From Candidatus Iainarchaeum sp. (GTDB lineage Archaea > Iainarchaeota > Iainarchaeia > Iainarchaeales > 1-14-0-10-31-34), in assembly GCA_040755695.1 (NCBI GenBank), contig JBFMAK010000001.1, positions 384,637 to 448,636 of the forward strand: a stretch of DNA of 64,000 nt, in the 5' to 3' direction. Position 1 is the first letter of the stretch; every line of letters begins with the position of its first letter. Below the pieces are notes generated by a model that saw only the letters and a program-made list of their open reading frames with translations, was not told the DNA's origin and did no database searches. Shown in pieces: positions 4,398-64,000 of this stretch. The translations under genes were made by a program, and so were the position numbers.

Positions 4398-4664
4398 TTA
4401 CCTTCTTTTCCTTTTTTTTCCTACGAGCCCGCGCGTCTCCCACACTAATAGTTTTCTCAGGATGTATCCAATGCCTAGAACGAAAATAAGGATGAGTGCT
4501 GCCTGCCAGTAATTGCCTGCCCTGAAGAAGTAGTCCCTGAATTCGCCCAAGTAATTGCCGAAAGCCACTGAAGCATATACAACCAGAAAGAATGCCATCA
4601 GAAAGAAAAGCAATTTAATTGCAAAATTCAATTCCTTTAATAGAACGCTGCTCATTTTTCTCAC
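4398..4664 (-). CDS. small hydrophobic membrane protein
   Basis: 88 aa with two hydrophobic helices and a basic C-terminus. Confidence 0.3.
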   Translation of the reverse strand: MRKMSSVLLKELNFAIKLLFFLMAFFLVVYASVAFGNYLGEFRDYFFRAGNYWQAALILIFVLGIGYILRKLLVWETRGLVGKKRKRR

Positions 4665-5005
4665 ACAATTCTTCTAAGCCTTAATTTGCGTTTTTTCGCT
4701 TTTGTGGAACCTTTTATATTTTTTGATCCGAGATGACCTTCCCATAGTGCCATGTCAGCCATATTAAAAGATTTTTTTGTAATTTCCCTTAATATTGTTT
4801 GATTTATTTTTAGTTGTTTTCCTTCGTTTCTGGCTGCACAGAAGTCATGGAAAAGCCACTTAAAAACTTGCTTTATTACCTTTTCTTTTTTTATAAGGCT
4901 TTTTTGAGTAAGTTCGTCGGCGTAACTTGTGATTTCTTTTAGATTAGGCTTTCCTAAACTATTAAGCCATATCTTGAATTCTTTTCTCATTTCTTTCGGG
5001 CTCAT
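4661..5005 (-). CDS. hypothetical protein
   Basis: 114-aa ORF overlapping neighbours by 4 nt at both ends, which suggests an operon arrangement. Confidence 0.3.
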   Translation of the reverse strand: MSPKEMRKEFKIWLNSLGKPNLKEITSYADELTQKSLIKKEKVIKQVFKWLFHDFCAARNEGKQLKINQTILREITKKSFNMADMALWEGHLGSKNIKGSTKAKKRKLRLRRIV

Positions 5006-5031
5006 TTTAATTCCTCTTCATATTTAATAAT

Positions 5032-6894
5032 TTAGAGTTCCTCCCTTATTTCTGTTGTTTGCACGTGCTTCTGTTGTTCGTACATTTTAATTATTTCTTT
5101 TTCTGTTGTGGCTTCCTCGGGCTTCCTGTCAACCCTAATCGAAATCATTCTCGGAAACCTCAAGGCGAAGCCTAATTCTTTTGTCTTGCCTGCAGTGTGA
5201 ACAGGGCTTTTAGTAATCTCGTCTGCTCTCACTTCAATGACATACTTTGGTTCAACCCAGAAGTCTGGCTCCAGTTCAGAATTAACTCTCGCAGGCTTGT
5301 GCGAAGCCTTTATTTTGCTCAGTATTTTCTCTAATTCAATCATTTTTTCTTCTGTCATTCCTGTTCCAATCTTTGCAATGCTCTTGAACTCGTCTTTTTT
5401 GTCATCGTACACTGCAGTGAGCAATGCGCCTAGGCCGAATTGGGTTCTCTTTCCTCTTCCCTTGTAGTATCCAATAATTACTGCGTCCACTGTGTCGCTT
5501 AATTCCCCTTTATAGGAACGCTTTAGTTTAATCCAGGCGAATTTTCTTGCTCCAGCAATGTATTTTGCGTTCAGGTCTTTTGCTATGATGCCTTCAAGGC
5601 CTCTCTGCACGCATTCCTCGAAAAAGGCATTGATTTTTTTTGGGTCGTCTGTTACAATTGATTCTGTAAGCTCTATTGTTTCGCCTTTCTTTATTATTTC
5701 TTCCAACAGCTTTCTTCTTTCTTTGAATGGCTCGTTCATGAAATTCTTTCCGTTAAGCATCATTACATCGAACACGAAAAGTTTTAATGGGAACTCCTTT
5801 GCCTTCTCCCCTATCTCGTATTTTCTTTTCCTTTGGATTGTCACCTGGAACGGAAAGAATTCTCCTGTCTCCTCGTTTACTGCAAGGGCTTCACCTTCTA
5901 TTACTGCGGCCTCTGCCTTCAACTGCTTTTTCACTCCTTCAACTATTTCAGGGAACATTTCTGTCATGTTCTCCTGCTGCCTTGAAAAAATAATTATTTT
6001 GTCTTTGTTTTTGTGCACAGCCAACCTAAATCCATCGTATTTTGCTTCTACAGCACATTTCCCTATTTTCTCCAAGATCTCTTCTGCTGAAGGCAGCCTT
6101 TCTGCTAAGGTCGGCCTTATTGGAATTCCAGGCTCAATTGAAATCTTCTCCAATCCACCTAACCCCTTTTCTTTTAGAATGCGTGCTATTTCGCCTAAAT
6201 CAGAATAAATATTGTATTTCTCTTCTATCCTTTCTCTTAAGGCAACCTTTATTCTCCTGTTCAATTCTTCATTCCATTCCTTTTCCTTTATTTTTTTGTC
6301 TTTCATTTGGGCTTCAATCCTTTTCACTAATTCCTTTTCCTTTTTTCCTTCCTCCACCAAGCTCAAGGCAAAGGAATCCATTATTGTTGGATCGCCAATC
6401 CCAAGCCTTAAATTTTCCAAGGGAATTCGCGCAATGAATTTTGCTTCCAGTGGAAGAGCAGAATTCAATAGTTCTGCCATAAGCTTCAATTTGAGTTCCT
6501 GACTTCCTGGGCCTTCTGCTTTAGCAATTTTCAATAAATTATCAAAAACTTTTTTCACGCTCAATTTCTCTTGAAATAAAGAAGACTGCTTTTTCTTTGC
6601 AACAAGGGCTTCTGCCACAAGGCCCAGATCGCCTTTCTCTTTGAACTGCTTTTCTATTTCATGCCTTGTGTAGCCTGAAGCCTTTGCAAGGGCATCCATC
6701 AACAGTTTTTCTCCTAAACCTGCCTCAACCTTTGCATAATTAGGCCCAAGCTGGCCTTGAGAAAGATAGACAACATTCTTTATGTTCTCCGAGTCAGTTT
6801 TACTGAATAATTCTGCAAGCAGGTCAGTCATCTTCAAGCGCTCTGAAGCCCTTTCAATCTTGTCAAAGTATTCAGCCAGCAATTCAAAATGCAT
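5032..6894 (-). CDS. lig: ATP-dependent DNA ligase
   Basis: Adenylation motif I KYDGFR is present. 620 aa. Domain order matches archaeal/eukaryotic ATP-dependent ligases. Confidence 0.9.
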   Translation of the reverse strand: MHFELLAEYFDKIERASERLKMTDLLAELFSKTDSENIKNVVYLSQGQLGPNYAKVEAGLGEKLLMDALAKASGYTRHEIEKQFKEKGDLGLVAEALVAKKKQSSLFQEKLSVKKVFDNLLKIAKAEGPGSQELKLKLMAELLNSALPLEAKFIARIPLENLRLGIGDPTIMDSFALSLVEEGKKEKELVKRIEAQMKDKKIKEKEWNEELNRRIKVALRERIEEKYNIYSDLGEIARILKEKGLGGLEKISIEPGIPIRPTLAERLPSAEEILEKIGKCAVEAKYDGFRLAVHKNKDKIIIFSRQQENMTEMFPEIVEGVKKQLKAEAAVIEGEALAVNEETGEFFPFQVTIQRKRKYEIGEKAKEFPLKLFVFDVMMLNGKNFMNEPFKERRKLLEEIIKKGETIELTESIVTDDPKKINAFFEECVQRGLEGIIAKDLNAKYIAGARKFAWIKLKRSYKGELSDTVDAVIIGYYKGRGKRTQFGLGALLTAVYDDKKDEFKSIAKIGTGMTEEKMIELEKILSKIKASHKPARVNSELEPDFWVEPKYVIEVRADEITKSPVHTAGKTKELGFALRFPRMISIRVDRKPEEATTEKEIIKMYEQQKHVQTTEIREEL

Positions 6895-9604: not shown

Positions 9605-9606
9605 TT

Positions 9607-9776
9607 GCGGAGGTGGCGGAGTGGTCCAACGCACCAGCTTGGAGCCTGCCCCTTTTTCTTTTTAAAAAAAAGAAAAAGCGGCAAGTTGCCGGAAAAAGAA
9701 AAAGGTTTTGGTGGCCGGATAGCTGGCGAGCGCAAGCTCACGCGAGTTCGAATCTCGTCCTCCGCGTCCGCCCTTT
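9607..9776 (+). tRNA. tRNA-Ser(GGA), class II, with 76-nt intron (9645..9720)
   Basis: Acceptor GCGGAGG/CCTCCGC+G. Anticodon stem CCAGC...GCTGG. Loop TT-GGA-G|intron|A. Long variable arm CGAGCGCAAGCTCAC. T-arm GCGAG-TTCGAAT-CTCGT. The intron contains a palindrome plus mini-repeat copy. Confidence 0.6.
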
Positions 9777-9869
9777 TTCTTTCTTTCCAAAAGAAAGAAA
9801 AAGTGCAGGTTGCCCAAAAAGAAAGAAAGCGGCAAGTTGCCCAAAAGAAAAAAAATAAAGTTGCAGTTG

Positions 9870-10022
9870 GGGGGGGTAGTCTAGCTTGGTTAGGATTTCA
9901 GCTTGGGGTAAGCCCCTTTTCTTTTTTCCAAAAAGAAAAGGCCTTTGGGTTCAAAAGAAAAAACCTAAAAAAGGAAGGCTTCCAATATGCTGACGACCCG
10001 AGTTCGAATCTCGGCCCTCCCA
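9870..10022 (+). tRNA. tRNA-Pro(GGG) with 79-nt intron (9909..9987)
   Basis: Acceptor GGGGGGG/CCCTCCC+A (one G-U pair). D-arm GTCT-AGCTTGGTTA-GGAT. Anticodon stem TCAGC...GCTGA. Loop TT-GGG-G|intron|T. T-arm CCGAG-TTCGAAT-CTCGG. Intron ends pair as AAGCC/GGCTT. Confidence 0.6.
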
Positions 10023-10266
10023 CTCTGCCCCTTTCTTTCTTTTAAAAAAAGAAAGAAAGTGGTAAGTTGCCCCAAAGAAAGAAAAGAAAAGTGCAGGTTG
10101 CCCAAAAGAAAAATGGTGAAAGTTTACAGTCCATCCAAAAGAGAAAAAGCATAGGTTGCAATTTAATTCCAAAAGGAATTAAATGCACATTAAAACCGAA
10201 AGGTTTTAATCGTACCCCAAAGAAAGAAAATACAATTAAATATAAGTTTCAATTAAGGTTTTAATC

Positions 10267-55580: not shown

Positions 55581-57971
55581 TTAAGAAAATTCCACTCTGA
55601 ATTCTTTTCCTTTCCTTATTTCTTTGGCGTTGCAGACTGCTTTGATGTCTTCCAGCGCAGGCTTTAATTCTTCAAGGAGTTTTTCCTCCACTGAAAGGAT
55701 TACTTCTGCCTTCATTGACTTCTGGTTTCTGGCTTTCTCCTGCCTTACCTTTCCTATGAGTTCAACTGCTTTCTCTCCTAAAGAAAAATTTTTTTCATCC
55801 AAAAATTCTTTTCTGAATTCAGGGAAAGAAGATAAGTGAATGCTTTTTTTGCCCTCTTTTTTCGCGTAATACATTTGGTAGATTTCCTCTGAAATGAAAG
55901 GCATGAAAGGCGCAAAGCATTTCAGGACTGAAAGAAGGGCTTCATTCAAGGCATACTGCGCTGAAATCTTTCCTTCCTTCCCTTTTTTCCCTGAATTGTA
56001 AAGCCTGTCCTTTATTATTTCAAGGTAATAGTCGCAAAAGGAATGCCAGAAGAAGTTCTCAAGGATTGCCTTTGCTTTGCCGTATTCATAGGCATCAAAG
56101 TGTTCTGTGATTTCTTTCACAACCAAATTGAGGTTATGTATAAGCCATGCATCTATTGCCTCAAGCTTTTTTGGCTTTTCTCCCTTGTAATCTGAAAGAT
56201 TCTGCAAGGAGAATTTTGAGGCATTCCATAGTTTTGTCACAAACTTTTGGCCTGTTGCAACATCCTTTTCCATGAATGGAGCGTCCTGGCCTAAATTGAT
56301 GGATGAAGCCCAGAACCTTAATGCGTCAGCAGAATATTTTTCAATTATCTCTGTTGGTGTAATGGCATTGCCTTTGCTTTTGCTCATCTTTTTTCCTTTT
56401 GGGTCTAGGCACCAGCCCGAAATCATTATGTCTTTCCAAGGCACTTTTCCTGTGTGCAATAAGCTTTTCACTATTGTATTGAACGCCCAGAAGGTAATGA
56501 TGTCGTGTGCCTGAGGCCTTAAGGTATTAGGAAACAGTTTCTTGAACTTCTTCTCGTCTCTCTGCCATTCCGAAATAATTAATGGAGTAAGGGAGGATGT
56601 AGCCCATGTGTCCAGGACATCTTTTTCTGGTTCGAATTTTGTGCCATTGCATTTAGGGCAGGGCTTTTTAGGCTTATCAATAAGAGGGTCTACTGGAAGG
56701 CTTTTTTTGTCTGCCAGAATTATTTCATTGCATTTCTTGCAGTACCATACTGGGAAGGGCACTCCATAGTATCTCTGCCTTGAAATGCACCAGTCCCACT
56801 GCAGGCCTTTAATCCAGTTGTCATACCTGTGCTTCATGTGCTCTGGAAACCATCTTATTTTCTTTCCTGCTTCAAGGAATTCCTGCTTCAAATCCAAGTA
56901 TTTTATGAACCACTGCTTTGACACAAGGAATTCTATTTCTGTTCCGCACCTGTCGTGGACATTAACTGTGTGGCTTATGCTTTTCTGTTCTTTTAGCAGG
57001 CCTTCTTTTTTTAATTCCTGGAGTATTGCTTCTCTTGCTTCGTTTAATTTCTTTCCTGCAAATCTTCCTGCTTTTTCGTTCAGTTTTCCGTCAGGGTTAA
57101 TTACAATTTTTAATGGGAGGCCGTACGCCTTCCACCATTCAATGTCCACTGTGTCCCCGAAAGTGCAGCACATAACAATCCCTGAGCCTTTCTTCGGGTC
57201 TACCCTTTGGTCTGCAATAATTGGAACTAAGTAATTGAATAATGGCACCAAAGCTTTTTTTCCAATAAGTTTCTTTGTTTTCGGCTCATCAGGGTGCACT
57301 AATACTGCAACGCATGCTGAAAGAAGTTCAGGCCTTGTGGTTGAAATAATTATTTTTTCTTTTGTTCCTTCAATTCCAAACAAAACATCATTGAATTTAG
57401 AGCTTAATTCCTTGTCCTCCAATTCCACTTGGGATATTGCTGTCCTGCACTCAGGGCACCATAAGGTTACTGCCTCCTTCCTGTATTCTCTTCCTTTCTC
57501 GTACAATTCAATGAATGAATGCTGGCTCAGCCTCTGCACTTCAGGGCTTATTGTGGAATAGAACTGGCTCCAGTCGCATGAAATCCCAATTGAATTCCAC
57601 GTCTTCCTGAATTCTTTTTCTGCTTTTGCTGTTTCCTCCAAGCATAATTTCACGAAATCTTTTCTGGGCATTTCTGTTGCCTTTATCTTCCTTTCCCTTT
57701 CAACGAATTTTTCTGTTGGAAGGCCGTTATCATCAAATCCGAACGGATAGAATACATTGAAGCCTTTCATTCTCTTGTATCTTGCAATGAATTCGGCTTG
57801 CGCGTAAGAGAAGGCATGGCCTACATGAATCAATCCTGATACAGTAGGAGGGGGGGTGTCAATTACATATAATGGCTTTTCTGAATTCAAGTCAAACTTG
57901 AAGATTTGCTCTTTCTCCCAGTATTGAGCCCACTTCTTTTCTGATTCCTTGGGATTATAATTCGCTTGCAT
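55581..57971 (-). CDS. valS: class I aminoacyl-tRNA synthetase, most likely valyl-tRNA synthetase
   Basis: PPPTVSGLIHVGHA (tri-proline HIGH region typical of ValRS) and KMSKSKGN. GFDDNGLPTE. About 796 aa. LeuRS is not fully excluded. Confidence 0.6.
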   Translation of the reverse strand: MQANYNPKESEKKWAQYWEKEQIFKFDLNSEKPLYVIDTPPPTVSGLIHVGHAFSYAQAEFIARYKRMKGFNVFYPFGFDDNGLPTEKFVERERKIKATEMPRKDFVKLCLEETAKAEKEFRKTWNSIGISCDWSQFYSTISPEVQRLSQHSFIELYEKGREYRKEAVTLWCPECRTAISQVELEDKELSSKFNDVLFGIEGTKEKIIISTTRPELLSACVAVLVHPDEPKTKKLIGKKALVPLFNYLVPIIADQRVDPKKGSGIVMCCTFGDTVDIEWWKAYGLPLKIVINPDGKLNEKAGRFAGKKLNEAREAILQELKKEGLLKEQKSISHTVNVHDRCGTEIEFLVSKQWFIKYLDLKQEFLEAGKKIRWFPEHMKHRYDNWIKGLQWDWCISRQRYYGVPFPVWYCKKCNEIILADKKSLPVDPLIDKPKKPCPKCNGTKFEPEKDVLDTWATSSLTPLIISEWQRDEKKFKKLFPNTLRPQAHDIITFWAFNTIVKSLLHTGKVPWKDIMISGWCLDPKGKKMSKSKGNAITPTEIIEKYSADALRFWASSINLGQDAPFMEKDVATGQKFVTKLWNASKFSLQNLSDYKGEKPKKLEAIDAWLIHNLNLVVKEITEHFDAYEYGKAKAILENFFWHSFCDYYLEIIKDRLYNSGKKGKEGKISAQYALNEALLSVLKCFAPFMPFISEEIYQMYYAKKEGKKSIHLSSFPEFRKEFLDEKNFSLGEKAVELIGKVRQEKARNQKSMKAEVILSVEEKLLEELKPALEDIKAVCNAKEIRKGKEFRVEFS

Positions 57972-58107
57972 GCCCATAAGCATTTTTTTCCTTTAATTAA
58001 TTAACTGATTAATTAATCTTCCTTGAGAAGCTTTTTTTTATTATGCTTTTTTCCTGCCTTTTTACAGCAGGTATTAAAATAAATTTGAGTTAATTTCTTT
58101 TATAGTT

Positions 58108-59873
58108 ATGAAAAAGAAATTTTTTATTGCATTGATTTTATTGTGCTTTCTCTTCTCTTCTGCCCTTGTTTCAGCCAAATCCTATTACCTTCCCAAGACT
58201 GAAGTGTACATGAAGATTAATCCTGATGCATTGATTAACGTTGAAGAAAAGATTAGCTTTAATTTTTTGGGTGACTTCTCTTTCGCTTACAGGGACATAC
58301 CAAAAGGGCAGGGCAGTTGAGCAATATCCAGGTGCTTGAAGGCTCTCAGCCACTAAAATTTGAGTTAATTGACTTTGGCAGCAACACAAGAATTAAATGG
58401 TATTACACTGCTTCAGACGAGCAAAAGATTTTCACTTTAAAATACAATTTAAGCAAGGCTGTTACAGCTTACTCTGATGTAGCTGAATTGAACTGGAAGG
58501 TGTGGGGCGATAACTGGGCTGTCCCATTGAATGAATTGTACGGCTGGATTGAGCTTCCTTCCGATGTAAATAATCCAAAGGATGTTTACACCTGGGGGCA
58601 TCCTGCAGTGAACGGGAGGATTGGCTTGATTGAAGGAAACAAGATCCTGTTCCAGACATTCAATGTTCCTGCAAACCAGTGGGTTGAAATCAGGGTTGCA
58701 TTTCCCGTTTCCCTGCTTTCCTCCACAGAGAACGCAATTGCCCGCAATAGAGCCGGACTGCAGGGGATAATTGAAGAGGAGAAGAATTATCAGGCTGCTT
58801 CAAAATTAAATTTGATTCCTAAAGACTTTGAATTGCTTTTAGTGCTTTTCTTGTCGATTCAAATGGCCTTTTTCGGTTTTGTCTGGCATTACTTCGGCAG
58901 GGAACCAAAAATTGAATATGAAGCATATTATGAAAGGGAAGTGCCTTACGATTACAGCCCTGCAGTAGTAAGCGTTTTAATGCACCCATTAACAAAGACG
59001 CCTCAATTGAACCAGATAGTTGGGGAGATATTAAATTTATGCTTGAAAGGGAAATTAAGGCTTGAACAAATAAAAAAGTCAGGTTTCCTTGATAAGGGAG
59101 AATACAAAATTCATATAATTAATTCTTCAGCAGAAAACCTGCCTGAAAGCGAAAGGCTTCTCCTCAATTTGATTTTAGATGCAGCAAAAGGAAGATTTGA
59201 AGGATTAATCCTAAAAAAATTCAAGGAAGACAAAACGCCAAAGGAATTGCTTTTATCAGAGCTTGAAAGCTATTTAAGGAACAAGCCTTCCAGAGCCCAA
59301 TCTTTTGCAGAAGACTGGAAGAAAAGCGTAAAAGAAGAAGCTGAAAAACTTGGTTTCTTTTCAAAAAAGAACGGAATAATTCATTACATTGCTGGCTCAA
59401 TAATTATATTAATAATTTCCTTTATTGTTTCTCCTGTAATAACAATTGCAGTATTAATTGGTGCAGTGCTTCTCCAGTTAATTTTTCCTGAATCTCTCCC
59501 CAACAGGACAAAAGAAGGTGCATTGCATTACGCTAAATGGATGAACTTGAAGAAGTTCTTGGAGGACTTCAGCAAACTCAAAGAAATGCCTCCGACTGCG
59601 CTGCCTTTATGGGAGAAGTATTTGGTTTACTCAATTCCTTTAGGGGTGGCAAAAAAGGTGCAGGACGCAATGGATTACGTGTTCAAGGATTACAGAGGCG
59701 CATATAATTCCTCAATCTTTGTTGGTTCATATACGGCCTTCTCTGTCTCAGGCTTTGGCTCTGCTGTTTCAGGCTTCTCTTCTGCTTTTGCTTCTGCTGC
59801 AACCGCTGGGAGCGGAGGCTTTGGCGGCGGAGGCGGCGGAGGAGGGGGAGGCGGCGGAGGCGGAGCAGGCTGA
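58108..59873 (+). pseudogene. DUF2207-family membrane protein split by a -1 frameshift near 58300..58320
   Basis: The 58108..58320 ORF has a signal peptide plus the start of the N-domain (...YRDIPKGQGS*). The 58317..59873 ORF (TTG start artefact) continues in the -1 frame with the typical C-terminal TM helices and GGFGGGGGGGGGGGGGG tail. The junction lies in the direct repeat gggcagggcag. Confidence 0.5.
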
Positions 59874-59923
59874 AGCTTAAAATACTTTACTGCACTTTAA
59901 AATTATTGTCAAGGTGAAAGATT

Positions 59924-60193
59924 GTGAGAAAACTTGCTTTTGGTGGAGGGCACAGAGAAGGGAAAAGAGGCGGAGTGAAAAGAAGAAGGCCAAGGCGTTC
60001 AAGCAATGGTTTTTATATTCCTGAATTGCCACACCAATCAGTCCAAATTGGAAAATATAAATATGGAATTACTCATATCGGAAGACGACTTACAGTAATG
60101 CGCTATTATAAAGGCGGAAAAGAAACAGTTCATGATAAAGAGCTTATCAAAAAAGTGTTAATTGCTCTAAAAATATTAAAGAAAAGAAAATGA
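59924..60193 (+). CDS. small basic protein, paralog 1 of a tandem family
   Basis: GTG start preceded by AAGGTGAAAG. FGGGHREGKRGG N-terminus and KKVLIALKILKKRK C-terminus. Confidence 0.4.
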   Translation: MRKLAFGGGHREGKRGGVKRRRPRRSSNGFYIPELPHQSVQIGKYKYGITHIGRRLTVMRYYKGGKETVHDKELIKKVLIALKILKKRK

Positions 60194-60205
60194 ATTAATT
60201 TTTAG

Positions 60206-60508
60206 GTGAAAAAAATGCATAGGGGTATTTCGTTTGGAGGAACCCGTCACACAATAACAAGAAGAGGCAAGCGAACAGTAGCATTTAAGAGAGGGGAATT
60301 TTCTATTTCGCCTTCAAAGTCTATATCAAATACTATTACATTAGCCGATAAAAAATATTATGTTTTAGATTTTAAGGGACGGCCGCCAATAGTAATGTGC
60401 CGTAATGGAGTAAAAAAAGAAAAGGTAAATGACCCTAAACTCAAAAAGAAAATAATTCATTTATTAAAAGAAAAAAGACTAAAGAGAAGACTAAGCAAAA
60501 ATAGGTGA
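60206..60508 (+). CDS. small basic protein, paralog 2
   Basis: AGGTGAAAAAA-ATG. FGGTRHTITRRGKR N-terminus. ...VMCRNGVKKEKVNDPKLKKKIIHLLKEKRLKRR parallels paralog 1. Confidence 0.4.
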   Translation: MKKMHRGISFGGTRHTITRRGKRTVAFKRGEFSISPSKSISNTITLADKKYYVLDFKGRPPIVMCRNGVKKEKVNDPKLKKKIIHLLKEKRLKRRLSKNR

Positions 60509-60711
60509 AAAAAATGTGTGCCACTCATAAAGGAAAGACGGTGTCCTTAAGAGGAAAGCACGGGATAAAAGGAAGAAATAATAAAATTGCAAGGCTTCCC
60601 TTAGGTTTAAGAGGAAAAGGTACGCTCCCAAAAAATGTTTTTGCTATATGCGAACTAAAATGCTGGAGGAGCGGCTTGGGCAAGGGGCAGCACAGAAACA
60701 TAATGTACTGA
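60505..60711 (+). CDS. small basic protein, paralog 3 (shorter)
   Basis: AGGTGAAAAAA-ATG again. Starts MKKM like paralog 2. Rich in K/R/G. Confidence 0.35.
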   Translation: MKKMCATHKGKTVSLRGKHGIKGRNNKIARLPLGLRGKGTLPKNVFAICELKCWRSGLGKGQHRNIMY

Positions 60712-60819
60712 AACAAAGAAAAAAAGAGGGCGGAAACCTTAAGAAGCCCAATCCTGATTAAAATGTTCAAAGAAGCAGAACAAAAAAGAAAAGAAGAAAA
60801 GAAAGAGAGGAGAAAATAA

Positions 60820-63681
60820 TTATTTCTTTAACTCAAAAAAGAATTCTTTTTCCAGTATTTTGTTCATTGCGCCTTTTCCTTGGGTGATTTTTGTGTTGGT
60901 TTCTGCTTCGATTTCTTTCTTGTGCTTTTTAATGAATTTCTTGTCATTGCAGTTAAACTTCATTTCAATTAATTCGTTTGGATTGAATTTCAGCTCTTTT
61001 CTCTTGTCTTGGATTCTTCTAACAAGTTCAGCTAGCTCCCATTCTTCTTTGAGCTCTTTATCTGCTTCAAGGTTTAAATGCAATGAAATTTTTTCGTTGA
61101 ATTCCTTGCTCGCATAATTTCCTTTTGGTTTCTGTTTTGAAATAACTGCTTTCTTTACATTCACTGAGCTTGCAAGAATGCCTAATGTTTCTTTTAATGC
61201 TTCTTCCTTTGATTCTATAATCAATTCCTTTAAAGGCCACCTAAGCCTTAGCTTCTGCTCTTCCCTCATTGCAAGAACGCTTTGGGCCAATTCTTTTGTT
61301 AATTCAAATTCTTTTTCTAATTCTTTGTTGATTAATTCTTCTTTTACTTCAGGGAATTCAAATAAATGAATGGATTCAGGCAATCCCTTTTCTTTCAGGT
61401 TCTGGTACAAGTATTCTGTAATGTGGGGGGTAATTGGCGCCAAGACTTTAAGGAAGTTCACCATGACATAATTCATTGTGTTGCTGACTGCCTTCTCTTT
61501 TGCTCTGTCCCTTATCAGTTTGATGTAAGTCCTGCTGAAGTCTTCAACCAAAAACTCGTTAATTAATGCTGCTGCCTTGGTGTAATAATACTTGTTGAAT
61601 GCTTCTATTGCTTCTCTTGCAGTTGAATTGAATTTTGATACAATCCATTTGTCTTCTGTCCTCAATTCCTTTAATTCAATTTTATTTGAATTCAGGGCAT
61701 CAGTTTTCAAGTAAAGTTTAATGAAATTAAAGGAATTCCATAATGTGTTGAAGAACCTGTTGATGTCGTTGAATGAATTCCAGTCAAAGGCAATGTCTTC
61801 GCCTTTTGAAACAGAACAAAAGTAGAACCTCATGTAGTCCCTGTTATACTTTTCAATTACTTCTTTTGGCTGGATGGTATTGCCTGTGCTCTTGCTCATC
61901 TTCTTTTTCTCTAATCCTAAAACCATTCCGTGAACCGCAATTGCCTTGAATGGAACTTTATCAAAGCATATTGTGGAGGTAATTATCTGTGAATTCCACC
62001 ATCCCCTCACCTGCTCTGTTGCCTCAATGTTCAAGTCAGCAGGCCAAAATCTTTCAAACAAGTCTTTTCTTTTAGGGTAATTTAATGCGCCCCAGCTTGA
62101 GACGCCTGCATCAAACCAGACATCCATTACTTCAGGCACCCTCTTCATTTTGCCTTTCCTGCACTTAGGGCAATCAAACACAATTTCATCTATTTCAGGC
62201 TTATGCAAATCCAAGCCCTTCTTTAATTTTGCATATCTTCCAAGCTCTTCCACTGAACCAAAAACAATTCTTTCACTGCATTTATCGCAGACCCAGATAG
62301 GCAATGGAGTGCCCCAATATCTTGCCCTGCTTATAGGCCAGTCCCCTATTCCTTCAAGCCAGTTCTTCATCCTGTCCTTCATCCAGAAAGGAACCCAATT
62401 CACTTTCTCGTTCAATTCAATAAGCCTTGCCTGAATTCCTGAAATCCTGAAAAACCATTGAGGCACAGAAATCATAAGCAATGGGGTCTTGCATCTCCAG
62501 CACAAAGGATAATCGTGGGTGAAAGGATGCCTGAAAACAAGGGCATTCATTTTCTCTAAGTCCTCAATTATCTCTTTGTCTACAATCCTTGCCTTCTTTC
62601 CTGCATACTTTCCTGTTTCCTCTGTAAGCTCTCCATTCAATCTCACTGGCGATATTGCAGGAAGCCCTTTTTCTTTTCCCACTTCAAAGTCTTCCCTTCC
62701 ATGGCCTGGAGCGCAGTGCACTAAGCCAGTGCCTGACTCTAAGTCAACATATCTCTCTGAAAGCACAATCCTGTAAGCATTCTTTAATTTCCCTAACTTC
62801 AAATTCTTTTCCAATGGATTGAAATACTCCATTCCCTCAAGCTCTTTTCCTTTGAATTCTTTTATCACCCTGTAACCGTAGCCTATTGTTTCCATTATTT
62901 TGGGCATTAATTCTTTTGCTAGAACCCATTTCTCTCCATTGCTTAATTCAACCTCACTGTACTCGAATTCAGGGTGAACCATTATTCCTGTATTCCCTGG
63001 GAGCGTCCAAGGAGTAGTAGTCCAAATAATGAAAAACAAATTCTTTTCTTTTCTTGCAGGAAACTTCACGTAAATGCTTTCATCTGAAAGTTTGGTGTAC
63101 TCAATTTCATTATAGCTTACTGCTGTCTCGCAGCGAGGGCATACATGAACAGAATACTTATCCAAGTAAAGAAGACCTTTCTCTTCTGCTTTCTTGAAAG
63201 TCCACCATATTGCCTCAATGTAATCATTTGAAAGCGTAATGTAAGGCTGCTTCCAGTCCATCCATACCCCCAAGTCTTCAAACTCCCTGTTCTGCGCGTC
63301 AATAAACCTTGTGGCGTAATCCCTGCATTTTTCAATGAACTTCTTTATTCCATAAACTTCAATGTCTTTCTTGTTTTTTACTCCAATCTCTTTTTCCACC
63401 TGGAATTCAATTGGAGTTCCGTGCGTGTCATAGCCTGGCCTGTCAAAGACATTAAAGCCCTGCATCCTCTTTACCCTGATTGAAACATCCTTTAAAATTT
63501 TGTTCAATGCAGTTCCCATGTGGATGTGTCCAGTAGCATAAGGGGGCCCGTCCATGAAATAATAATTCTTGGAGGAAGAAGCATTCTTCGCCCTAACCTT
63601 TTCAGGCACTCTCTGCTTCTTCCAGAGCTCTTTTACTTCCTCTTCTTTCTTCAAAGAATAAGGCTCAATCATTCCGCTCAT
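60820..63681 (-). CDS. ileS: isoleucyl-tRNA synthetase
   Basis: PPYATGHIHMGTALNKILKD and GYDTHGTPIE match the IleRS HIGH region. KMSKSTGN. Zn-binding CPRCE...CDKC/CPKC. 953 aa. Confidence 0.8.
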   Translation of the reverse strand: MSGMIEPYSLKKEEEVKELWKKQRVPEKVRAKNASSSKNYYFMDGPPYATGHIHMGTALNKILKDVSIRVKRMQGFNVFDRPGYDTHGTPIEFQVEKEIGVKNKKDIEVYGIKKFIEKCRDYATRFIDAQNREFEDLGVWMDWKQPYITLSNDYIEAIWWTFKKAEEKGLLYLDKYSVHVCPRCETAVSYNEIEYTKLSDESIYVKFPARKEKNLFFIIWTTTPWTLPGNTGIMVHPEFEYSEVELSNGEKWVLAKELMPKIMETIGYGYRVIKEFKGKELEGMEYFNPLEKNLKLGKLKNAYRIVLSERYVDLESGTGLVHCAPGHGREDFEVGKEKGLPAISPVRLNGELTEETGKYAGKKARIVDKEIIEDLEKMNALVFRHPFTHDYPLCWRCKTPLLMISVPQWFFRISGIQARLIELNEKVNWVPFWMKDRMKNWLEGIGDWPISRARYWGTPLPIWVCDKCSERIVFGSVEELGRYAKLKKGLDLHKPEIDEIVFDCPKCRKGKMKRVPEVMDVWFDAGVSSWGALNYPKRKDLFERFWPADLNIEATEQVRGWWNSQIITSTICFDKVPFKAIAVHGMVLGLEKKKMSKSTGNTIQPKEVIEKYNRDYMRFYFCSVSKGEDIAFDWNSFNDINRFFNTLWNSFNFIKLYLKTDALNSNKIELKELRTEDKWIVSKFNSTAREAIEAFNKYYYTKAAALINEFLVEDFSRTYIKLIRDRAKEKAVSNTMNYVMVNFLKVLAPITPHITEYLYQNLKEKGLPESIHLFEFPEVKEELINKELEKEFELTKELAQSVLAMREEQKLRLRWPLKELIIESKEEALKETLGILASSVNVKKAVISKQKPKGNYASKEFNEKISLHLNLEADKELKEEWELAELVRRIQDKRKELKFNPNELIEMKFNCNDKKFIKKHKKEIEAETNTKITQGKGAMNKILEKEFFFELKK

Positions 63682-63693
63682 TTTGCCCGCACT

Positions 63694-63987
63694 TCACTTA
63701 ATGTATTTTTTTGAGTAATTTTCAGTGAAAATCTTTGCTGTATTGTCATCGAACACTTTTATTACCTCATAGCTTCCTTTTGTTTCACTTGAATTTGTAA
63801 CGAAATCCTTTACTTTTATTACGCCTGCAATATTCCAGTCCCTGTCAGCCAAAAGCATTGGAACGTCTATTGGGTAAATTCTGCTCCCGCTCTTCTGAAA
63901 CCTTAATGTCTTTCCTGCAACAAAATCCTTCCTGTCCAATTCATCCTTTAACTTCAACACGAAATTGAATTCAACCATTGCACCCAT
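63694..63987 (-). CDS. hypothetical small protein
   Basis: 97 aa, 12 nt upstream of ileS, so probably co-transcribed. Confidence 0.3.
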   Translation of the reverse strand: MGAMVEFNFVLKLKDELDRKDFVAGKTLRFQKSGSRIYPIDVPMLLADRDWNIAGVIKVKDFVTNSSETKGSYEVIKVFDDNTAKIFTENYSKKYIK

Positions 63988-64000
63988 TCAAATTACCTCC

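Follow-up and report, generated by a model that had tools for sequence, protein, structure and literature searches.

PC4-like domains share no sequence conservation, and their type II form is a dimer of two beta4-alpha chains (PMC7549692). According to a 2020 review, only homodimers of this two-chain type have been reported (PMC7549692). In the nucleic-acid-binding domains of PC4-like, Pur-alpha and Whirly type alike, four strands are followed by a helix. The Sul7d proteins of Sulfolobales (Sso7d/Sac7d) are small archaeal proteins, Lys-rich and restricted to their lineage, in which a beta-sheet is followed by a C-terminal helix.

Here we describe a locus in the MAG of a Candidatus Diapherotrites (DPANN) archaeon, situated on a 581-kb contig, where the spacer between the 3' ends of a DUF2207 gene and ileS is fully occupied by three small ORFs. 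For the products of the first two, ORF1 and ORF2, the topology of four antiparallel strands and a helix is also predicted, over about 55-60 residues and following a basic disordered region. We tentatively favour the reading that ORF1 and ORF2 are real, Diapherotrites-lineage-restricted genes for small basic proteins, which were duplicated in tandem and then diverged fast, and whose products are candidate nucleic-acid binders. All positions below refer to the window, i.e., the whole stretch of 64,000 nucleotides that was analysed, unless a contig is named.

The spacer between DUF2207 and ileS and its three ORFs

The upstream border of the spacer is formed by a DUF2207 membrane-protein gene (58108-59873, + strand), which is co-oriented with the three ORFs and whose product has both DUF2207 domains of Pfam, N- and C-terminal, and a poly-Gly tail. 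Owing to a frameshift of 1 nt near 58317, the gene is divided into two frames, 58108-58320 and 58317-59873. Its ortholog on the related metagenomic contig L081 is intact and encodes 589 aa; relative to it, the window has a 1-nt deletion, GGCAGT-TGAGC versus TGGGGTATAAGC, which could reflect either a genuine pseudogene or an error in the MAG assembly. The poly-Gly C-terminal tail (…GSGGFGGGGGGGGGGGGGGAG) is encoded by a 9-nt tandem repeat of the GGCGGCGGA type at 59805-59876 (+ strand). The GFGG motif of this tail is also present in L81b, a small ORF of the related contig, and N-terminally in both ORF1 and ORF2; the motif is of low complexity, and a common origin of its copies in the DUF2207 tail, the ORFs and L81b is conjectural.

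Between the DUF2207 gene and ORF1 lies a leader of 50 nt (59874-59923, + strand), which contains the TATA-like A/T-rich stretches TTAAAATA (59878-59885) and TTTAAAA (59897-59903), followed by the first copy of AGGTGAAA. From their composition, these A/T-rich stretches can be read as a candidate promoter. On the other side of the spacer, ileS (60820-63681, - strand) runs convergent to the ORFs and forms the conserved right-hand edge of a variable interval. An earlier sequence-only reading of this DNA had drawn attention to the adjacency of the small genes to ileS, a link that their arrangement does not bear out, since ileS merely borders the spacer and the ORFs are co-oriented with DUF2207. The unit of DUF2207 and small ORFs as a whole is flanked by genes of class I aminoacyl-tRNA synthetases, one of Val/Leu type at 55581-57983 (- strand) and the other ileS itself. 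Far from this locus, an Rfam tRNA match of 160 nt and 43.5 bits at 9607-9766 (+ strand), uncalled by ARAGORN, is probably an intron-containing archaeal tRNA, and the 146-aa ORF that overlaps it (9605-10045) is likely spurious.

As the sequence-only reading had stated, the three ORFs follow one another and encode extremely basic proteins; they lie on the + strand, and their products have pI values of 11.1-11.5, net charges of +14 to +23 and a Lys plus Arg content of 23-30%. ORF1 (59924-60193; MEW6295161.1, a singleton) starts with GTG and encodes 89 aa with a pI of 11.3. ORF2, the paralog of ORF1, spans 60215-60508 and encodes 97 aa from ATG with a pI of 11.5 (in GenBank, 100 aa from GTG at 60206), and ORF3 spans 60514-60711, encodes 65 aa from ATG with a pI of 11.1 (68 aa from GTG at 60505) and has the lowest coding score of the three. 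The GenBank entries, AB1467_02590, AB1467_02595 and AB1467_02600, are all labelled 'hypothetical protein'.

Each ORF is accompanied by a + strand copy of AGGTGAAA, and these three copies are the only ones on that strand in the window. The first (59912-59919) stands 4 nt ahead of the GTG of ORF1, the distance from GGTGA to this start being 6 nt. The second (60204-60211) is Shine-Dalgarno-like and leaves 5 nt between GGTGA and the ATG at 60215, and the third (60503-60510) includes the last Arg codon and the TGA stop of ORF2. Window-wide, AGGTGAAA occurs five times against 4.0 expected, which is not above chance; what is non-random is its clustering and its position ahead of start codons. Only at these three GGTGA sites of the window does a start codon that opens an un-nested ORF of 65-97 aa come within the next 3-12 nt, and the upstream contexts of other window genes are weaker or different. 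Furthermore, ORF2 and ORF3 have the identical 15-mer TAGGTGAAAAAAATG in common.

The shared motif had already been recognised in the sequence-only reading, together with lengths of 100 and 68 aa for the second and third proteins and a 4-nt overlap of their genes. Copies of AGGTGAAA are indeed present at 59912, 60204 and 60503, but the GTG starts of ORF2 and ORF3 on which these lengths depend fall within the AGGTGA motif itself. With AGGTGA as the ribosome-binding site, translation would start at ATG 60215 (97 aa) and ATG 60514 (65 aa), and ORF2 and ORF3 would not overlap. In this layout the TGA stop of ORF2 (60506-60508) lies inside the AGGTGA of ORF3, AGG-TGA reading as Arg-stop, and ORF3 is probably translated in coupling with ORF2. 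Because the 3' end of the 16S rRNA lies outside the window, we infer from the sequences ahead of genes, including AAGGAGGTGAAA, which precedes genes in relatives, that ribosomes of this group do bind at AGGTGA. As a near-perfect Shine-Dalgarno sequence, it would drive the start of each ORF. A scan of 676 kb of related loci for basic small ORFs led by a Shine-Dalgarno sequence returned none of this type.

Coding potential and paralogy of ORF1 and ORF2

The spacer comprises 926 nt, 43% A and 22% T, and we compared its ORFs with those expected from such a composition. Over 5000 dinucleotide-preserving shuffles of the spacer, the joint presence of ORFs of at least 97 and at least 89 codons had a probability of P = 0.0002, and three such ORFs arose in none of the 5000. 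For all three ORFs the annotated frame obtained the top score among the six frames, the strand skews fit the + strand as the coding strand, and the purine fraction at codon position 1 was 0.67-0.68, versus 0.67 in window genes. The codon-usage scores were low: ranked among real-gene windows, ORF1 and ORF2 stood at about the 5th percentile and ORF3 between the 1st and the 5th. GC3 was 0.22-0.24 in ORF1 and ORF2, which is atypical versus the 0.41 +/- 0.04 of window genes, and 0.42 in ORF3, which is typical of them.

ORF1 and ORF2 can be aligned end to end with 27-29% identity. BLASTP reported 27% identity over 83 aa with E = 0.004, and Smith-Waterman shuffles gave z values of 4.3-4.7 with p of 0.0007-0.0025, or p = 0.013 with window-preserving shuffles. 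At the nucleotide level, identity rises furthest above expectation at the second codon position (53% vs 26% expected). Both ORFs are in one frame, with two stop codons between them. By sequence comparison the two are demonstrably paralogous, and the tandem amplification noted in the sequence-only reading holds for this pair. The C-terminal segments that the sequence-only reading quoted for this pair were correct as well.

That reading had counted ORF3 as a third paralog, and here the claim holds for the pair and not for the trio. The similarity of ORF3 to ORF1 and ORF2 was not significant (BLASTP E 9-33; shuffle p 0.12-0.92), the FGG motif is absent from it, and it shares with them only its charge and the 15-nt start cassette. 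Past its TGA, ORF3 continues in frame as NKEKKRAETLRSPILIKMFKEAEQKRKEEKKERRK* (60712-60819, + strand) and ends 1 nt before the ileS stop. This tail (…ILIKMFKEAEQKRKEEKKERRK) is collinear with the C-terminal helix of each of the other two proteins, and the read-through unit has about 100 codons, as theirs do. With the tail included, BLASTP against ORF1 and ORF2 gave no significant match (E 0.56-11), and hhalign against the ORF1/ORF2 profile gave a collinear alignment that was not significant either (P = 0.077). From the layout of this tail, we put at about even the chance that ORF3 is a decayed third copy, cut by an in-frame TGA and deprived of its C-terminal helix.

Relatives of the locus and competing explanations

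Among about 15 billion proteins, none of the three ORFs has a recognisable relative. Word-seeded searches of 5.8 billion clusters with all three ORFs returned the query proteins only, and when 1.84 billion representatives were searched exhaustively with an HMMER profile, only ORF1 and ORF2 themselves were retrieved. At E <= 10, the three ORFs matched no family of Pfam or NCBIfam, the archaeal chromatin, ribosomal and RNA-binding families included, except for a spurious Profilin hit (14.5 bits; cut-off 25), and Pfam scans of ORF3 with its tail and of the L081 ORFs gave no match. PHROGs yielded no match (E >= 0.23), PADLOC no family at E <= 10 for the three ORFs and the 101-aa L081 ORF, and sequence searches of the PDB were empty for the single proteins as well as for the ORF1+ORF2 profile. 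The same profile found no relatives in IMG/VR or the JGI metagenomes, and blastn found no match in GenBank phages. At the nucleotide level, Rfam gave nothing at gathering scores over 59700-60950, and a sensitive scan gave a chance match of 20 bits (E = 0.73). The sequence-only reading did not recognise the family, in agreement with what we found: all three are hypothetical singletons in GenBank and match no library.

We then compared the locus with related genomes. In tblastn searches of about 35 Iainarchaeia ileS loci, whose ileS is 45-74% identical, the ORFs left no trace (best E 0.088). At these loci, the DUF2207 neighbour is absent, and downstream of ileS lie deoxyhypusine synthase, Sec61-beta or other genes. 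In L001, the closest GTDB relative, whose ileS is 74% identical, a gene of 176 codons (4663-5193, - strand) runs convergent to ileS; its product is acidic and Lys/Glu-rich at the N-terminus, and its C-terminal part looks by eye like a histone fold.

One syntenic close relative was found, the metagenomic contig L081 (Ga0315289_10000240), whose ileS protein is 91% identical. In blastn, window 57001-59891 is 86.6% and window 60818-64000 88.2% identical to this contig, and the borders of homology at 59891 and 60818 are sharp. The spacer between them, 926 nt here versus 496 nt in L081, is not alignable apart from one residual patch of 43 nt with about 77% identity (z of about 2.7-3 and p of about 0.02), which encodes RRGKRTVAFKRGEF in the window versus KKKRTVVFKGREF in L081. 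L081 nevertheless has its own pair of small basic ORFs (5915-6405 of that contig, - strand), in the same position and orientation as in the window. The first, L81a, is a 101-aa ORF that starts 49 nt after the L081 DUF2207 stop, versus 50 nt in the window, and its 101 codons exceed chance length (P = 0.0004). The second, L81b, is a 58-aa ORF that follows an AGG-TGA junction, as between ORF2 and ORF3, and shares the final 22 nt of ileS in opposite orientation. The similarity of L81a to ORF1 (z 2.8, p 0.015) and to ORF2 (p 0.05) is marginal, and hhalign of L81a against ORF1/ORF2 gave a collinear alignment with P = 0.083. Within L081 itself a motif is duplicated, RKRGNMLKINR in L81a versus RKRGTMLKIDR in L81b (z = 7). 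An absence of conservation in relatives, which the sequence-only reading regarded as telling against the genes, is therefore nearly what we observed: about 35 Iainarchaeia loci are without the ORFs, and the counterparts in L081 are marginally similar.

The matching offset of the first ORF from the DUF2207 stop and the 43-nt residual homology argue for divergence in place and not for replacement. The simplest reading of the two spacers is that their ORFs are positional orthologs, which would have diverged faster than the flanks and undergone local duplication while ORFs of about 100 codons were kept open.

Taken together, we consider ORF1 and ORF2 likely to be real genes. This is suggested by ORF lengths beyond chance, the best-scoring frame, the purine content at codon position 1, the identity at position 2, the strand skews and the concordant predicted folds described below, and further by AGGTGA at a spacing of 5-6 nt, the homology of ORF1 and ORF2 and the positional counterparts in L081. 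Counted against it are the lack of homologs, the low codon scores, the GC3 of ORF1 and ORF2, the spacer that cannot be aligned with L081, the marginal similarity of the L081 proteins, structure models based on two sequences, and the frameshift in the upstream DUF2207 gene. What the data show directly are the ORFs and their motifs, the paralogy of the first two, the upkeep of open frames, the lack of relatives and the hypervariable nature of the locus; from these features we infer the expression, fold and function of the ORFs.

The alternative that survives best, which we consider possible though rather unlikely, is that the ORFs are proto-genes or decaying ORFs, yielded by a near-neutral purine-rich spacer that duplicates short segments and gives rise to K/R/G-rich ORFs, maybe translated but without an established function. 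Such an origin would be consistent with the orphan status of all three ORFs, with a spacer that is unalignable despite flanks 87-88% identical, with the low GC3 of ORF1 and ORF2 and the low codon scores of all three, with the in-frame TGA that seems to truncate ORF3, and with local duplications that occurred independently in both genomes (L81a/L81b, z = 7); Lys and Arg codons, moreover, are favoured by an A-rich composition alone. Yet the ORFs of about 100 codons in both genomes go far beyond what composition would give (P = 2e-4 and 4e-4), the ribosome-binding sites are near-perfect and correctly spaced, sequences with 27-29% identity yield concordant, confident folds, and the excess of identity peaks at codon position 2. 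If the ORFs are non-functional, they are a warning for MAG annotation, in that a purine-rich spacer equipped with good ribosome-binding sites yields 'basic protein' entries that look convincing.

Cargo of a virus or mobile element, inserted between DUF2207 and ileS and replaced by different cargo in the same slot of the relative, appears improbable to us. Close relatives do differ in spacer content, homology breaks off sharply at 59891 and 60818, the GC3 of ORF1 and ORF2 is atypical, and small basic proteins are frequent in viruses. However, no positive evidence for the viral or mobile remnant considered in the sequence-only reading came from IMG/VR, PHROGs, GenBank phages or the BFVD structures (E >= 0.26, not significant), and the locus has no flanking direct, inverted or att-like repeats, no integrase or transposase nearby and no adjacent tRNA. 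The same offset of the first ORF from the DUF2207 stop in both genomes and the persistence of the 43-nt homology patch also speak against an insertion.

To the same low degree, we credit the possibility that the ORFs encode fast-evolving partners or effectors of DUF2207, e.g., cationic cell-surface or host-interaction proteins diversified by an arms race. In both genomes the ORFs lie downstream of DUF2207 and are co-oriented with it, their divergence is extreme beside conserved flanks, and GFGGG in the DUF2207 tail is matched by FGG in ORF1, ORF2 and L81b. This likeness is of low complexity, however, the association is seen in two genomes only, the ORF sequences show neither a signal peptide nor a hydrophobic segment, and a PADLOC match is absent. 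Finally, a breakdown of a single known, larger gene into the three ORFs through stops and frameshifts is very improbable despite the common frame of ORF1 and ORF2, the two stop codons between them and the frameshifted neighbouring DUF2207 gene, as profile searches did not show such fragments, no family or longer protein was matched in Pfam, NCBIfam, the PDB or the 15-billion-protein collection, and ORF1 and ORF2 align with each other over their full length, as repeats do and consecutive parts do not.

Predicted fold, possible function and known systems

We modelled ORF1 and ORF2 with AlphaFold in separate runs for each target, both on one two-sequence ORF1+ORF2 alignment. The ORF1 model consists of strands at residues 39-42, 45-52, 55-62 and 65-68 and a helix at 72-88 (domain 39-88), and the ORF2 model of strands at 39-43, 46-51, 59-64 and 67-70 and a helix at 74-95 (core 39-95). 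On this two-sequence alignment, the beta4-alpha core was predicted at pLDDT 82-91 for both proteins. It is preceded by a low-confidence, disordered R/K/G-rich arm of about 30-37 residues (residues 1-32 in ORF1). Foldseek comparison of both models with the PDB and BFVD returned nothing significant, the best E values being 0.26-1.7. Of the structural check that the sequence-only reading had proposed, the prediction accordingly gave a core at pLDDT 82-91 and the comparison gave no significant match.

On the preferred reading of ORF1 and ORF2 as duplicated, fast-diverged genes, each would encode a protein of about 90-100 aa with a flexible Arg/Lys/Gly-rich arm in the first 30 or so residues, and the remainder would form a small globular domain in which four antiparallel strands are followed by a C-terminal helix, amphipathic and rich in Lys. 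The most likely activity would be RNA or DNA binding, independent of sequence, by way of the basic arm and the sheet, and dimers of one or both proteins may be the active form, as in small nucleoid or RNA-chaperone proteins. A nucleic-acid-binding function is suggested by how basic the proteins are, by their disordered R/K/G arm and by the small domain of sheet plus helix, and on the strength of these models non-specific binding seems plausible to us, if short of probable. If the proteins are functional, DPANN archaea, of whose chromatin and RNA-handling proteins little is known, gain a sequence-orphan family of small basic proteins, and the locus offers a gene slot with near-complete turnover beside flanks 87-88% identical, a natural case of small-protein origin, duplication and decay.

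A bolder reading, which we consider a long shot, takes the DUF2207-ileS spacer as a hotspot where a family of beta4-alpha 'half-domain' binders would have been born, duplicated and remodelled within one DPANN genus, with ORF1 and ORF2 forming a helix-swapped PC4-like heterodimer. If true, it would capture an archaeal protein fold in the course of very rapid or de novo evolution, and would also provide a new lineage-specific chromatin or RNA-chaperone protein.

As for the PC4-like class, Pur-alpha repeat III, PC4, MoSub1 and SsgA/B occupy ranks 3-24 of the Foldseek list of the ORF1 model, with E of 2-5 and TM of about 0.26-0.3, and the class does not recur in the list of the ORF2 model. Local motif echoes are found between VQIGKYKYGITHI and YYVLDFKGR in the ORFs and the strand motif FQIGKMRYVSVRDFKGK of PC4, the PC4 sequence used for this comparison having been confirmed against the PDB. 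We do not assign the ORFs to the PC4 family (Pfam PF02229) or its fold class, with no Pfam PC4 match at E <= 10 and hhalign probabilities of 2.5% for human PC4 and 1.6% for PC4+MoSub1. Judged from the models, a PC4-like fold for ORF1 and ORF2 is unlikely though conceivable, and the likeness to PC4 and Pur-alpha serves as a lead only.

The ORFs resemble Sul7d in being small, Lys-rich and lineage-restricted in Archaea, with a beta-sheet before a C-terminal helix, and differ from it in their long disordered arm. The Sso7d motif VSEKDAPKELLQMLEKQKK resembles TVHDKELIKKVLIALKILKKRK of the ORFs and serves as a lead only. Assignment of the ORFs to Sso7d was rejected, hhalign giving a probability of 0.1% and Foldseek E values of 4.8-6.4 with an rmsd of 9-16 A.

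The locus can also be set beside orphan, taxonomically restricted genes, with which the ORFs share the lack of outside homologs, a low GC3 (ORF1 and ORF2), an intergenic slot that varies, and duplication and decay on a local scale. Unlike typical orphan genes, however, the ORFs have optimal ribosome-binding sites, and ORF1 and ORF2 have confident fold predictions, which argues for established genes rather than noise.
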